Shown here: piece by piece, positions 43,839 to 47,885 of the stretch | Layout: every line of letters begins with the position of its first letter | How positions within the stretch are numbered: position 1 is the stretch's first letter | From: Longimicrobiales bacterium | GTDB taxonomy: Bacteria; Gemmatimonadota; Gemmatimonadetes; Longimicrobiales; Gaopeijiaceae | Assembly (NCBI GenBank): GCA_965116905.1 | Contig: OZ220732.1 | Location: forward strand, 2,752,001-2,816,000 | DNA: 64,000 nucleotides | Direction of reading: 5' to 3' | Program-made: the position numbers and the translations under genes | The notes under the pieces: model-generated | Database searches by the model: none | Told to the model about the DNA's origin: nothing | What the model saw: the letters and a program-made list of their open reading frames with translations, nothing else

Positions 43839-44453
43839 TCAGCCTTCGGACCGGGCGCGCAGGAGGACGTGCAGCGGGTCCTGCGGATCCTCGATGCGCT
43901 TCCTGAGCCGGTTCAGGGCATGGCGGATGTGAGAGCGCACGGTCGCGGGCCTGACGCGCATCAGGCGTGCCGCCTCGGCCGGACTCCTTTCGTCGATCAG
44001 TCTGAGCGTCAACGCCTGCCTCTCGCGGTCGGGAAGGTCGTCGATCGCCTCGCGGACGATGCGATGAAGGGCTTCGTCCTCGGCGCGGTCGAGCGGGTCG
44101 GGTCCCGAGCCGGACGCGTCGGAGACGGCCAGCTCGCCGGCGTAGCGGTCAAGATGCCGGGCGGCGGCCGTTCGGGAGCGGTAGTCGCTCACGCACACGC
44201 TTCGAGTCAGTCGGCCAAGCCACCCCCGAAAGGTCCCCGTCGCCCGAAAGGACTCCGCGGCTGCGTGCACCTTCAGCCAGGTGTCCTGGTACAGGTCGTC
44301 GAGGTGGTCGGGGTCGCGCGCGTAGCCTTTGCATATGGCCCATACCAGGGGACCATTCTCCTCCACGATCCGGCGGGCGTAGGTGCCGCCTGCGATGAAC
44401 CTCGCGGGTACGAACGGCAGGCGCTTCGCGTCTCCGCCGGGGGGACGGGTCAT
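43839..44453 (-). CDS. ECF-type RNA polymerase sigma factor
   Basis: Region 2: DDLYQDTWLKV...TFRGWL; region 4: LPDRERQALTLR...AEAARLM...TVRSHIRHALNRLR. Confidence 0.9.
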   Translation of the reverse strand: MTRPPGGDAKRLPFVPARFIAGGTYARRIVEENGPLVWAICKGYARDPDHLDDLYQDTWLKVHAAAESFRATGTFRGWLGRLTRSVCVSDYRSRTAAARHLDRYAGELAVSDASGSGPDPLDRAEDEALHRIVREAIDDLPDRERQALTLRLIDERSPAEAARLMRVRPATVRSHIRHALNRLRKRIEDPQDPLHVLLRARSEG

Positions 44454-44484: not shown

Positions 44485-44925
44485 TCAGGTCCGCGCGGCC
44501 TGCTGGACCGCCAGCGCCCGGTCCCGTCTGCCAACCAGAATCTGCACCCCCGCGGCCGCCGCACCTCCACCCGCGGCCACCAGCGCCAGCTCCAGGATCG
44601 TCGCCCCCGGCTGGAGGTGTCCGCCCGTGGCAAGGATCGCGGCCGCGATCGTCAGAGTTCCCAGCAATGCGGTCACCCACACGTCGACGGGACGAACGAG
44701 CGCCCGCCGGATCCGCAGCTTTGCAATCCTCTTGATGACCAGGTCATTGAGGTGCTCGAGGTGCTCCCGGCTTCCCCGTTGCGGCTTGAAGGCCCTTTTG
44801 GTCGCCCCGATCAAGAGCAGATCGAAACGGCACACCGGGCAGGTCTGCAGGTGTTCCCACGTGCCCGGGTCGATCTCGGTGCCGGGTTCCTGGCTGGTGA
44901 TGCTGAAGATGTCGGGACAGGACAT
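44485..44925 (-). CDS. putative zinc-binding (ZAS) anti-sigma factor with two TM helices
   Basis: C3...H25xxxC29xxC32 (HLQTCPVC), two hydrophobic segments, adjacent to ECF gene. Confidence 0.7.
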   Translation of the reverse strand: MSCPDIFSITSQEPGTEIDPGTWEHLQTCPVCRFDLLLIGATKRAFKPQRGSREHLEHLNDLVIKRIAKLRIRRALVRPVDVWVTALLGTLTIAAAILATGGHLQPGATILELALVAAGGGAAAAGVQILVGRRDRALAVQQAART

Positions 44926-44928
44926 GTT

Positions 44929-45774
44929 TCAGATTCCTCGCGAAGGGAAGGCCGGTCTGCCGCTGAACCAGGGGAAGACCGGCAGGTAATCCTGGTGGCG
45001 GGTCACGGCTGCGAGCGCCACGGCTTCGAGGAGGGGCACCGCCAGAGGGAGCCACGCGGCCGCGACACCGGACACCACGACCCAGTCACGGCCCGGATGA
45101 CTGGCGAAAACGGCCGCGCCGAAGAACGCCAGACCTCCGGCCAGTCCGATGGCGAGGCGACCGTTTCGGCGGCTCGGGGGGCGCAGCGCGCCCGTCACAT
45201 GGGATGCGCGAACCCCCAGCACGCAGTTGATGACGGAGAATGCCAGGAGAGCCAGCGGCATGTGCAGCAGGAGCCGGACGCGGTTGGGTGCTGCGGCCCG
45301 GGCCGTGTCGCCCGGGTTGTCCTGTCCCGGGGGATTCGCGTCCAGGAAGCGGAGTTCGCGGAGCCTCCCCGCGGGGGTCCTCGGTCCGAAGGGTCTCATC
45401 TCGGCCAGGTCGGGATCTCCGGCCAGGGCGGCGTGGTCCGCGAGCGGATTGATGATCTCGGACGACGCATAGCTCGCCACCCCGATGACAAGCCCCGCCA
45501 ACACCGCCACCCAGGTGCGTCCAGCCGCCGAGCTTCGTCTCCAGATCGCCACGCCACCGGCAAAGGCGGCGAAGGGCAGCAGGAGGCCCAGCAGGTCGGC
45601 CACGTAGGCGAGCCACATCAGGCCCGACCACGGCTGTGGCTGGGCTACGGCGACGGTGTGAAACACCACGATCGCAGCCACGAGTCCCAGAGTCCAGGCG
45701 ACCGCAACCTTCAGCGCATGGGCCAGCAGCGACATGATGCGGCCGAGTCCGAGGCGTTCGTACCGGATGTTCAT
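44929..45774 (-). CDS. polytopic membrane protein (~6 TM), weakly LptF/LptG-like
   Basis: Three TM, short soluble loop, three TM; LLLPFAAFAGG, INPLAD, LHMPLALLAFSVINCVLG; ATG overlaps peptide stop. Confidence 0.7.
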   Translation of the reverse strand: MNIRYERLGLGRIMSLLAHALKVAVAWTLGLVAAIVVFHTVAVAQPQPWSGLMWLAYVADLLGLLLPFAAFAGGVAIWRRSSAAGRTWVAVLAGLVIGVASYASSEIINPLADHAALAGDPDLAEMRPFGPRTPAGRLRELRFLDANPPGQDNPGDTARAAAPNRVRLLLHMPLALLAFSVINCVLGVRASHVTGALRPPSRRNGRLAIGLAGGLAFFGAAVFASHPGRDWVVVSGVAAAWLPLAVPLLEAVALAAVTRHQDYLPVFPWFSGRPAFPSRGI

Positions 45775-45977
45775 GGCTCCGGGCGGCATTCGCGGTCACG
45801 GTCACAGTTCTTGACGAGCCAGCAGCACTCACGGCAACAGTACGCCTTGGCGCCCTCGCCCCAGCAGCAGTCCGACCGCGTGAAACGGGTGAGCAGCGAT
45901 TGTGCCGGCGGCGCAAACAGGGCAACCGCCAGCACAAGGTTGAGAAGAATCAGACCAGCGAGGACCAGCTTGCGCAT
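45771..45977 (-). CDS. secreted cysteine-rich peptide (68 aa; ~41-aa mature region with 8 Cys)
   Basis: AGGAGG RBS; MRKLVLAGLILLNLVLAVALFAPPAQS-LLTRFTRSDCCWGEGAKAYCCRECCWLVKNCDRDRECRPEP; stop coupled to next ATG. Confidence 0.85.
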   Translation of the reverse strand: MRKLVLAGLILLNLVLAVALFAPPAQSLLTRFTRSDCCWGEGAKAYCCRECCWLVKNCDRDRECRPEP

Positions 45978-46014
45978 GGGCCATGCCTCCTGAAGGTGAT
46001 GCGACGCGGTGCGG

Positions 46015-47142
46015 CTACCCTGTCCATTCGGCCAGCCACCGTACCCCGTCGGGGGATCCATGGGAACCGAGCACTCCACGCGGCGTGGCCACGAGGGGCT
46101 CGAAAGAAGGGGGGAATTCGAACGCGTCCACCGCTCCCGAGGTCGTCACGCGCAGCCACCGGCGGCCGTGTCCGAGCGGGTCGGTCCGGTTGTCGAAGAG
46201 CCGGAGCCACGCCGGGCCTCCCGACTGGCAGAGCACGGAGGTCACGAACGGCAGTTCATCCGAGAAGTGCGCCCGCACGTCTCGCGCCATGGCCTCCAGG
46301 TCGATCCCGGCCTCGGCGTAGTTGGGGCCCAGCTCGAGGCGGATCATCTTCTCCAGGTAGAAGACGATGTCCGCCTCCTGAATCGGGGACGGGCTTCCCG
46401 GAATCGGGACCTGGGCGATGGACACTCCGCCGTCGTCCAGCCAGACCAGATCGTGCGAGGCGGGGCGCCACAGCACCAGGTCGCTGCCGCAGGCATCCCA
46501 TAGGGGCACGGGCACGAATTCCCCGGGAGTCTCCCCGGTCGGCCGCATGTGCTCCGAGAAGGCGACGACCTCCCGCCGGGTCTCGAGGGAAAGATCGGCC
46601 CGCACAAGGGAGGCCTCCTGGAAATCGGCCGTGACATCGAGACGGGTGGGCGTGTGGACCACGACCGCGCCCCGTGCATCCAGACGGACGCGGTAGGGAT
46701 CCGCGTAGGAGACGTCGTTGAAATCCCGTCGCCGCGCCCAGGAGGCGCCCTGCAGGCGTTCCGACCGGACCAGCGACATGGTCGCGTCGAAGACCTTGTG
46801 CTGCCTGCTGCCGACGTCCCACACGTGCGCCATCCCGCCATCCGGATCGACCTGCAGCGCGATGGGGAAGACGAGATCCTCCGGACCCTCACCGCGCTCG
46901 CCGCCTCGAAGGACATCGCCCCCGGCACGCTCGATCCGCGTGAGGTACGGAGGGGACGTGTCCAGCACCCATACGGCGTCGGGTGCGGTCGCGATGTCCC
47001 GTATGGCGGTGAATTCCACGCCGGGGAAGGGCGTCGTGAGTGCCTCGGCCGGAATCTCGCGAAACTCGATGGCCGCGTCCGAACTCGCGCAGGCGCTCGC
47101 GACCGCGCAGACGGCGCCAAGCAGCAGGAACCGGGGCCTCAT
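46015..47142 (-). CDS. probable 6-bladed beta-propeller lipoprotein
   Basis: Signal ending ASAC; IRDIA..DAVWVLD, GERGEGPEDLVFP, HVWD blade-like motifs; ATG overlaps upstream stop. Confidence 0.72.
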   Translation of the reverse strand: MRPRFLLLGAVCAVASACASSDAAIEFREIPAEALTTPFPGVEFTAIRDIATAPDAVWVLDTSPPYLTRIERAGGDVLRGGERGEGPEDLVFPIALQVDPDGGMAHVWDVGSRQHKVFDATMSLVRSERLQGASWARRRDFNDVSYADPYRVRLDARGAVVVHTPTRLDVTADFQEASLVRADLSLETRREVVAFSEHMRPTGETPGEFVPVPLWDACGSDLVLWRPASHDLVWLDDGGVSIAQVPIPGSPSPIQEADIVFYLEKMIRLELGPNYAEAGIDLEAMARDVRAHFSDELPFVTSVLCQSGGPAWLRLFDNRTDPLGHGRRWLRVTTSGAVDAFEFPPSFEPLVATPRGVLGSHGSPDGVRWLAEWTG

Positions 47143-47738
47143 GGCCGGTCCTCCGTCGTGACGCGCGGCCGGGCGGCGGGCGGGGTGTCGGCGGCCGGCG
47201 GGGCATCGGCGGCGAGCAGGACGTCGGTGGCGGGCGGTACGGCGGCGGGCGGCAGGGCGGCCACGACGTCGGCCAGTTCATCTCCGTGGCCCAGCGCGAC
47301 GACGCGGCCGTCCCGCAGCGCAAAGACCCACGGCGTGCGGCTGACGAGCGCGTGCTCCCGGCTCCCGAGGCCGAATCGGTCCATTGTCGCCACCGGGACC
47401 CGCCAACCGTGCGCCTCCGCGTGTCCGGCGGCCGCTTCGAGTGGCCCGGGCGCAACGGCGAGGACTCCTGCCGGTCTGCCCGGATCCCGCAGGAATCGTC
47501 CCCACTGCAGGGCAACCTGCCGGGAATGCGCGCACTCGGGATCGAAGGCGAGTACGAGCTGGTACTTGCCGAGCGGGTGGCTCCGGCCGCCGCTGTCGCG
47601 GACCTGGACACCCGAGAGGTCGTCGCCCATCGCGACATGCCCGGCACTCCCCGTTCCCAGGCGGCCGGCAAGCAGCGAGAACTGGAGGGCCGCCAGGGCT
47701 GTCAGCGCGGCGGTGATGGTACTTCCGGATCGGTTCAA
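47139..47738 (-). CDS. membrane-anchored/exported thioredoxin-fold (TlpA/redoxin-like) protein with CxxS
   Basis: N-terminal hydrophobic helix; GDDL.GV.V.D..G, LVLAFDPECAHS, TPWVFAL.DGRV; TTG start after GGAG. Confidence 0.72.
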   Translation of the reverse strand: MNRSGSTITAALTALAALQFSLLAGRLGTGSAGHVAMGDDLSGVQVRDSGGRSHPLGKYQLVLAFDPECAHSRQVALQWGRFLRDPGRPAGVLAVAPGPLEAAAGHAEAHGWRVPVATMDRFGLGSREHALVSRTPWVFALRDGRVVALGHGDELADVVAALPPAAVPPATDVLLAADAPPAADTPPAARPRVTTEDRP

Positions 47739-47753
47739 TGAACTGCTCCCGGG

Positions 47754-47794
47754 CTTCGAAATGGTGGACGTCTGGTCTTCGAAATGGTGGACGT
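47754..47794. repeat. 18-bp perfect direct repeat, 23-bp period, in the cassette leader
   Basis: cttcgaaatggtggacgt at 47754-47771 and 47777-47794. Confidence 0.9.
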
Positions 47795-47815: not shown

Positions 47816-47844
47816 TATGACAGTTCTCAGAGCAAAAACGTGCA
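47816..47844 (-). promoter_or_regulatory. candidate ECF-type promoter for the peptide cassette
   Basis: Minus strand TGCACG-N17-GTCATA within an AT-rich patch (TGCACGTTTTTGCTCTGAGAACTGTCATATAAGTGTAGAGGGG). Confidence 0.4.
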
Positions 47845-47885
47845 AAAGGGGCTCGCGTGGGCCTGCTGCTCCGACCCCGGTCAGG

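Follow-up and report, generated by a model that had tools for sequence, protein, structure and literature searches.

What does the gene for a 68-residue, cysteine-rich and apparently exported protein do between a predicted lipoprotein gene and a membrane-protein gene in a member of the Longimicrobiales? The gene lies within a 64,000-nucleotide stretch of genomic DNA (hereafter, the window; features are listed in Table 1), and its product comprises a signal or transmembrane (TM) helix with a near-invariant asparagine (Asn13), a linker and a core of eight cysteines spaced CC-x8-CC-x2-CC-x5-C-x5-C. A first-pass annotation had reported this framework without giving the strand, together with the AGGAGG ribosome-binding site and a basic-hydrophobic N-terminus, and all three were recovered here. 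It had also pointed out that the peptide is hidden inside a longer ORF. The ORF finder does return 102 aa, and we rejected this extension as an artefact of first-start ORF finding, in that the additional 34 aa contain in-frame stops in 6 of 11 orthologues.

Table 1. Features of the locus, in window coordinates.
Feature	Position	Strand	Remarks
Putative ECF-sigma promoter	47819..47846	minus	TTGCAC-N17-TGTC; heads the operon
Membrane-anchored thioredoxin-fold protein (redoxin)	47139..47738	minus	D-P-x-C-x-H-S (CxxS); TPW loop
Accessory predicted lipoprotein	46015..47142	minus	375 aa; no Pfam hit; matched in 11/40 loci
Shine-Dalgarno sequence	45986..45991	minus	AGGAGG; 8 nt before the peptide ATG
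Eight-Cys miniprotein gene	45771..45977	minus	ATG at 45977; TGA end at 45771; 68 aa
6-TM protein	44929..45789	minus	predicted LptF/LptG transmembrane fold without beta-jellyroll
Putative anti-sigma	44485..44925	minus	zinc-finger-type motif; two TM helices with a short loop
ECF sigma-70 factor	43839..44453	minus	start taken as the ATG after the anti-sigma stop; ORF finder extends to 44633

The 68-aa ORF is a genuine gene. In the 20 loci compared, the corresponding position has a start codon preceded by a Shine-Dalgarno sequence (19 full length; one, L019, starting later), and a public protein collection contains the exact sequence. All 11 orthologue pairs gave dN/dS values of 0.09–0.25, with orthologue differences distributed 147/64/294 over the three codon positions. 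The framework of three CC pairs occurred four times in the six reading frames of the genome, these being its four family members, versus zero times in each of three shuffles. The codon score of the peptide was weak (−0.016), yet the highest among the six frames. A shadow or chance ORF was ruled out by the codon-frame comparison, the dN/dS values and the comparison with shuffles. Neither a sigma-70 promoter nor a terminator was found. The locus is present in a sponge-metagenome run, and an RNA-labelled sponge run covers it as multi-kb contigs of flat depth, which cannot show transcription.

Homologues that conserve the cysteine framework, on whose existence the first-pass annotation had made its reading depend, are readily found, and relatives were placed in the Longimicrobiales/Gemmatimonadota. 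Retrieval by HMM alone yielded 78 distinct copies, 75 with eight cysteines, one with seven, one truncated and one divergent with nine. Profile matches were present in 41 of the 53 genomes of the genus (at most seven matches each), including the genome of the window (G000); a noisy tally at E ≤1 was set aside in favor of this profile search, and the unpublished genomes G037 and G056, which enter that tally alone, underlie no claim made here. A broader profile matched 23 of 401 genomes of the phylum, namely G000, 19 of the 69 other genomes in its family and 3 of the 166 genomes of one other family, among which only one match is convincing (E 3e-8). Beyond the Gemmatimonadota, the reach of the family was probed by word-seeded searches only, and a pattern scan of metagenomes gave 597 pattern matches, none of which was confirmed. 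For comparisons we also used a regular-expression set of 71 members, in which the asparagine and the framework were required by design; it splits into clade I (CC-x8; 48 members, including the window gene) and clade II (mostly CC-x9; 23 members). This family of eight-Cys miniproteins is unannotated and undescribed: the peptide gave no significant Pfam, NCBIfam or PDB-sequence match, and a search of titles and abstracts (with few subscription papers, and with the supplement of PMC7826278 outside its scope) returned no account of the peptide family, the cassette around it or an LptF/G-like ECF partner. The ECF reclassification paper indicates that its supplement describes the gene context of each ECF group (PMC7826278). 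Two loci of another family (L138 and L139) encode divergent Cys-rich peptides after redoxin and propeller-like genes, with the same signal asparagine and a different Cys spacing, and a peptide-redoxin pair is tandemly duplicated at L136:4627-7603.

The N-terminal helix has an uncharged span of median length 17 (range 14–23) and carries the asparagine in 76 of the 78 HMM-retrieved copies, the two exceptions being 5'-broken. Cleavage after residue 27 (A-Q-S; A-[QR]-[ST] in orthologues) is plausible from the sequence; a strict [AVS]-x-A site lies in the linker of 41 of 71 members and a loose cleavage motif, which is a weak test, in 68. A tyrosine precedes the second CC pair in 59 of 71 members and a tryptophan or phenylalanine follows the third in 58, and an aromatic or hydrophobic residue is retained at both places. 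We saw no conserved His or Met in the 41-residue Cys core and no replacement of Cys by His. From the first cysteine to the end, net charge is negative in 51 members, zero in 10 and positive in 10. In five orthologues, 18–20 of the 20 non-Cys core residues are identical, while their membrane proteins are only 60–68% identical; across the clade, the same core residues diverge by about 70% (median). As judged from these alignments, a core conserved among orthologues and divergent within the clade is what would be expected of a specificity-bearing surface.

Because the eight cysteines are kept despite changes in spacing, a thioredoxin-fold protein is encoded nearby and VKOR and DsbA-like genes are present in the genome, the core would fit four disulfides. 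Predicted structure adds little here: the mature part was modelled at pLDDT 51–72, with the core too uncertain, Foldseek gave 0 matches with this model, the best VIA match (Z 2.8) involved the N-terminal helix only, and the best ESM Atlas scores (0.77 and 0.80) belong to unnamed clusters and are leads only. Knottins and conotoxin-like miniproteins combine high Cys density and a signal peptide with variable loops on a fixed framework, and three CC pairs are not a usual knottin spacing. The likeness to venom peptides or knottins proposed in the first-pass annotation finds no support beyond Cys density, signal peptide and variable loops: there is no match in the Pfam, NCBIfam or PDB-sequence libraries, the cores are acidic or neutral in 61 of 71 members, and the gene sits in a regulatory operon. 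Knottin membership is unsupported at the sequence level. Metallothioneins are cytoplasmic, aromatic-poor Cys-rich peptides, whereas the peptide here has an N-terminal hydrophobic helix and conserved Tyr and Trp/Phe.

The setting of the gene is a compact operon, read in the order promoter motif, redoxin, lipoprotein, peptide, 6-TM protein, anti-sigma and ECF sigma factor, with genes that overlap or abut and with pdxA and holB as flanking genes. An alternative start of the 6-TM protein at 45774 overlaps the peptide stop (ATGA). The lipoprotein is probably beta-propeller-like; elsewhere, the genome has 48 matches to the PF17170/DUF5128 propeller family. The redoxin gave weak hits to thioredoxin and PDI chains (best E 5e-4) and has an invariant Gln in its TM helix. 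Its active site is CxxS or CxxT in 37 of 39 clade I loci, with CxxS in the window in place of the CxxC of TlpA-like proteins, and CxxC in 13 of 22 clade II loci. In the putative anti-sigma, C3, H25, C29 and C32 are invariant in 30 of 30 members, 10 of which match zf-HC2 weakly, below the cut-off; the C...HxxxCxxC zinc motif and the adjoining ECF sigma gene are those of a ZAS anti-sigma.

To score conservation of this arrangement, we dropped 8 of 48 clade I loci for short flanks and retained 40, which with 23 clade II loci gave 63; the loci were taken from best hits and are related to one another, and the counts describe this sample rather than independent trials. All 40 clade I loci encode the membrane protein, the anti-sigma and the sigma factor, with the peptide directly upstream of the membrane-protein gene in each, and 39 encode the redoxin. 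Among clade II loci, the redoxin was found in 22 of 23 and a sigma factor in 14 of 23. Over both clades, the redoxin is present in 61 of 63 peptide loci and the LptF/G-like membrane protein in 56 of 63. Approached from the redoxin, a peptide-type gene was found beside 9 of 10 further hits (two divergent and of another family), the tenth being cut by a contig end. Approached from the membrane protein, for which 54 of 68 loci had full flanks, the sigma and anti-sigma were always present, the peptide in 44 loci and no peptide in 10, and these 10 peptide-less loci were all without the redoxin as well; a Fisher p value from this comparison is an overstatement, given the relatedness of the loci. G000 itself has four complete sets of peptide, receptor and full redoxin, each set at its own locus beside an ECF sigma gene. 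The first-pass annotation was thus right about a real, exported-looking eight-Cys miniprotein and missed its conserved ECF-sigma cassette, a context that makes a signalling component, rather than an effector, the likelier role.

The membrane protein is predicted to have the transmembrane fold of LptF and LptG. Its model is confident (pLDDT 88) and all-helical, with about 45 residues between TM3 and TM4, and its best structural matches are LptG and LptF chains (Z 18.8, 17.4 and 16.4; next best 8.4), the first of these, to LptG, aligning 229 residues at an rmsd of 3.2 Å. The same LptF/LptG chains also head the Foldseek ranking, though with E values no better than 0.016, and PF03739 was weakly matched in 13 of 34 members of the 6-TM family. 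While the six-helix fold is common to both, the window protein differs from LptF/LptG in several respects: the periplasmic beta-jellyroll is absent from the model, the protein is encoded by a single gene rather than paired F and G genes, and it has no adjacent ATPase, an ABC-type Walker A motif occurring within 4 kb of only 4 of the 63 loci and the nearest ABC ATPase lying more than 40 kb from the window locus, although an ATPase encoded farther away might still serve it. A separate, true LptF/G pair is encoded elsewhere in the genome.

A further difference from LptF/LptG, as read from sequence comparisons, is fusion with an anti-sigma-like domain, which two lineages show. In clade I, such fusions account for 6 of 38 hits, plus 2 loci. 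In clade II, a fused protein of ~400 aa combines a related N-terminal membrane part with a C-terminal TM pair; in 16 of 23 loci its gene lies no more than 4 kb away, and in 10 it directly follows the peptide gene. Profile comparisons of this protein score modestly, with E 4.7e-5 (probability 68%) for the membrane family of clade I and E 1.7e-4 (50%) for the TM pair of the anti-sigma, but a search with the fusion HMM also recovers remote membrane proteins of the clade I type at E values as low as 1e-22. The notion that clade II is without a receptor was overturned by this protein. Since the anti-sigma has two TM helices joined by a very short loop, it would have no sensing domain of its own, and the LptF/G-like protein is its presumed sensory partner. 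A comparable division of labor is described for CnrYXH of Cupriavidus, an autoregulated operon in which an anti-sigma with little periplasmic part needs a co-encoded extracytoplasmic partner (PMC6851896). The components differ: CnrX is a His/Glu/Met four-helix metal sensor, a site that the window peptide does not have, and CnrY is single-pass (PMC6851896), whereas the window cassette combines a Cys miniprotein with a 6-TM accessory protein and an anti-sigma that has a zinc finger and two TM helices, and no efflux genes follow its promoter motifs. The cassette would be a variant of accessory-sensor ECF signalling not described before.

Some loci depart from this layout. At L099 and L100, distant LptF/G-like genes stand beside an ECF sigma gene and a different, 560-aa partner, with no peptide, and the link between receptor and sigma factor may be older than the peptide. 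A clade II subgroup (L122, L125, L126 and L137) has no LptF/G-like gene; a divergent ABC transporter adjoins, with a response regulator at L137, which suggests that the sensing route was swapped. In five other clade II loci (L120, L124, L129, L132 and L140), what appears by eye to be an AraC-like helix-turn-helix regulator follows the fused receptor.

The motif TTGCAC-N17-TGTC, whose spacing is ECF-like, emerged from the upstream regions, and is presumably read by the cassette's own sigma factor. Its gapped count alone did not exceed that of shuffles, and the short pattern occurs twice in the window against 1.2 expected, which is not significant alone. A position weight matrix built from 40 sites of other genomes (G000 excluded, close orthologues of the window operon included) ranked the window operon site first in G000, at 50.0 bits. 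Above 22 bits, G000 has eight sites, versus none in a shuffle; six of these stand ahead of the window operon, a redoxin gene, the genes of two peptide paralogues and those of two unrelated Cys-rich secreted proteins, and the remaining two lack a clear target. Of the 48 clade I loci, 39 carry an upstream motif above 14 bits (background 0.5%), a count that includes training sites; the motif usually lies about 100 nt before the first gene and was found in none of the 23 clade II loci, whose sigma factor differs. The operon 5' leader also contains a 17-nt direct repeat (47754-47793, minus strand), and one related contig lacks 23 nt at 47754. Elsewhere in G000, further small secreted proteins that are rich in Cys but have other frameworks form islands (G000:C1:748000-755000, 727700-730000, 364700-368300 and 945300-948600) together with propeller-like and DsbA-like genes, and several carry the motif.

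The reading that we favor, as a tentative one approaching an even bet, is that the peptide is an exported, disulfide-folded, dedicated ligand of the LptF/G-like protein in a self-regulating ECF sigma circuit. The peptide would be exported by Sec, its four disulfides would be set or shuffled by the anchored CxxS/CxxC redoxin, and the folded peptide would dock on the periplasmic face of the LptF/G-like protein, which would signal within the membrane to the 2-TM anti-sigma; the sigma factor would transcribe its own operon and other secreted Cys-rich proteins. We favor a ligand because of the gene order and the one-to-one multiplication of peptides and receptors, and because the non-Cys surface exceeds the rest of the cassette in conservation among orthologues, yet diverges among paralogues. 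The fusions of membrane protein and anti-sigma in both clades, the scarcity of Walker A motifs together with the separate LptF/G pair, and the position of the promoter motif also count in favor of a ligand. Several observations argue against it. As the peptide-less loci imply, a receptor does not need a ligand gene close by; conversely, 7 of 23 clade II peptides have no receptor in the fetched DNA. The most constant neighbor is the redoxin, not the receptor. Co-divergence of peptide and receptor is modest (partial correlation 0.25, versus 0.20 for the redoxin, in a mirror-tree comparison that linkage confounds and makes uninformative). Complex predictions of the peptide with the membrane protein and redoxin, which scored 0.36, 0.03 and 0.30 against a mark of 0.32, uncontrolled, are counted on neither side. 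Anchored TlpA-type redoxins are usually reductants, and one of this type would favor free thiols. Moreover, since the peptide shares its promoter with other secreted proteins, it may be only an output.

This last point leads to the main rival of the ligand reading, which is possible but on the whole unlikely: the peptide would be a sigma output that acts as a periplasmic thiol buffer for soft metals or oxidants, with the redoxin recycling it, much as for bufferins or MrpX under SigF/NrsF. It ranks as the main rival because no partner is as constant as the redoxin and receptors are found where the peptide is missing; the redoxin is nearly obligate from both sides of the comparison, and the joint absence of peptide and redoxin at every peptide-less receptor locus also points this way, as do the mostly acidic cores and a possible electron supply from two DsbD/CcdA-type genes in the genome. 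Precedents exist for ECF control of Sec-exported peptides rich in Cys or Met (PMC11626156, PMC4436054). The bufferins of Caulobacter (buf1/buf2) are small Sec-signal precursors with conserved Cys encoded beside SigF/NrsF (PMC11626156), and the window peptide resembles them in its sequence pattern and in its place beside an ECF sigma and anti-sigma; it differs by its eight cysteines in three CC pairs and by its redoxin and LptF/G-fold partners. Membership among the bufferins was rejected, as the MNIO family (PF05114, DUF692) was not found in G000, which is 97% complete, while the control matches in Caulobacter; further, DUF2282 or a related profile matched 0 of 70 members at E 0.05 (Pfam, NCBIfam), the bufferin subtype BUF_6/12Cys having no library profile. 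In the SigF/NrsF-MrpX-YedY system of Azospira, an ECF regulon is likewise built around a small periplasmic sulfur-rich peptide and a redox enzyme (PMC4436054); there the peptide is Met-rich and goes with methionine sulfoxide reductase, whereas the window has a Cys framework, a thioredoxin fold and an extra receptor-like protein. Besides the missing MNIO gene, a thiol buffer is hard to reconcile with the strong conservation of non-Cys surface residues among orthologues, with a Cys count that stays at eight without replacement by His, and with the 13 motif sites in G000, none of which leads to an efflux pump, copper enzyme or Msr.

Taken further, the ligand reading would make the cassette a quorum-sensing-like system of a Gram-negative lineage, with a four-disulfide pheromone, an LptF/G-fold receptor, an anti-sigma and an ECF sigma factor that turns on a secreted disulfide-rich arsenal, and the receptors of peptide-less cassettes would be eavesdroppers; we regard this extension as improbable. 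Gram-positive Blp, Com and Agr operons place a small peptide gene before a membrane receptor and a regulator, and use a histidine kinase and a dedicated ABC exporter. The window cassette is alike in its order of peptide, receptor and regulator, in its likely autoregulation and in having other secreted peptides as likely outputs, and differs in its diderm host, Sec-type signal, disulfide-type core and ECF sigma factor. An unsystematic look at the cassette revealed no dedicated exporter (ABC-type included) or outer-membrane receptor, which leaves action between cells unexplained.

The LptC helix packs within LptBFGC, and on this model the peptide could be an uncleaved small membrane subunit, with its Asn-bearing helix packed against the LptF/G-like protein or the redoxin and its Cys domain acting as a periplasmic switch. 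We consider this quite improbable. It would explain the asparagine of the helix, would fit the invariant Gln in the TM helix of the redoxin and the limited occurrence of the strict signal-peptidase motif, and has a precedent in the pairing of CnrX with CnrY (PMC6851896), but the uncharged span is rather short to anchor the protein stably, the loose cleavage motif is nearly general (a weak test, as noted) and receptors occur without the peptide. Least probable of all is a secreted antimicrobial or host-directed effector with the membrane protein as its immunity or self-sensing protein, for which the overlapping peptide and membrane-protein genes, several diverged paralogues per genome, the occurrence in a sponge metagenome and a promoter motif common to other secreted Cys-rich proteins would speak, but whose cores, in contrast to cationic defensins and bacteriocins, are mostly acidic or neutral and under tight purifying rather than diversifying selection among orthologues, with no dedicated exporter seen and a membrane protein tied, even fused, to the anti-sigma.

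An LptF/G fold that has lost its ATPase link and is tied to an anti-sigma domain, with fusion of the two on two occasions, would represent a new class of signal input for ECF factors, and the eight-Cys family is a possible new disulfide scaffold in bacteria. Given its small size and predicted promoter, the cassette can be rebuilt in a laboratory host, although the organisms are known here as metagenome-assembled genomes only. Two further regions of G000 resemble peptide loci of other kinds: at G000:C1:722072-727338, kinase-like and LanC-like genes, a 56-aa Ser/Cys-containing ORF and an ABC transporter have, by eye, the look of a lanthipeptide cluster, and at G000:C1:3898500-3902000, three tandem hydrophobic ORFs of 84–113 aa with paired CxxC-like motifs lie beside an ABC ATPase and appear to be bacteriocin-like precursors.
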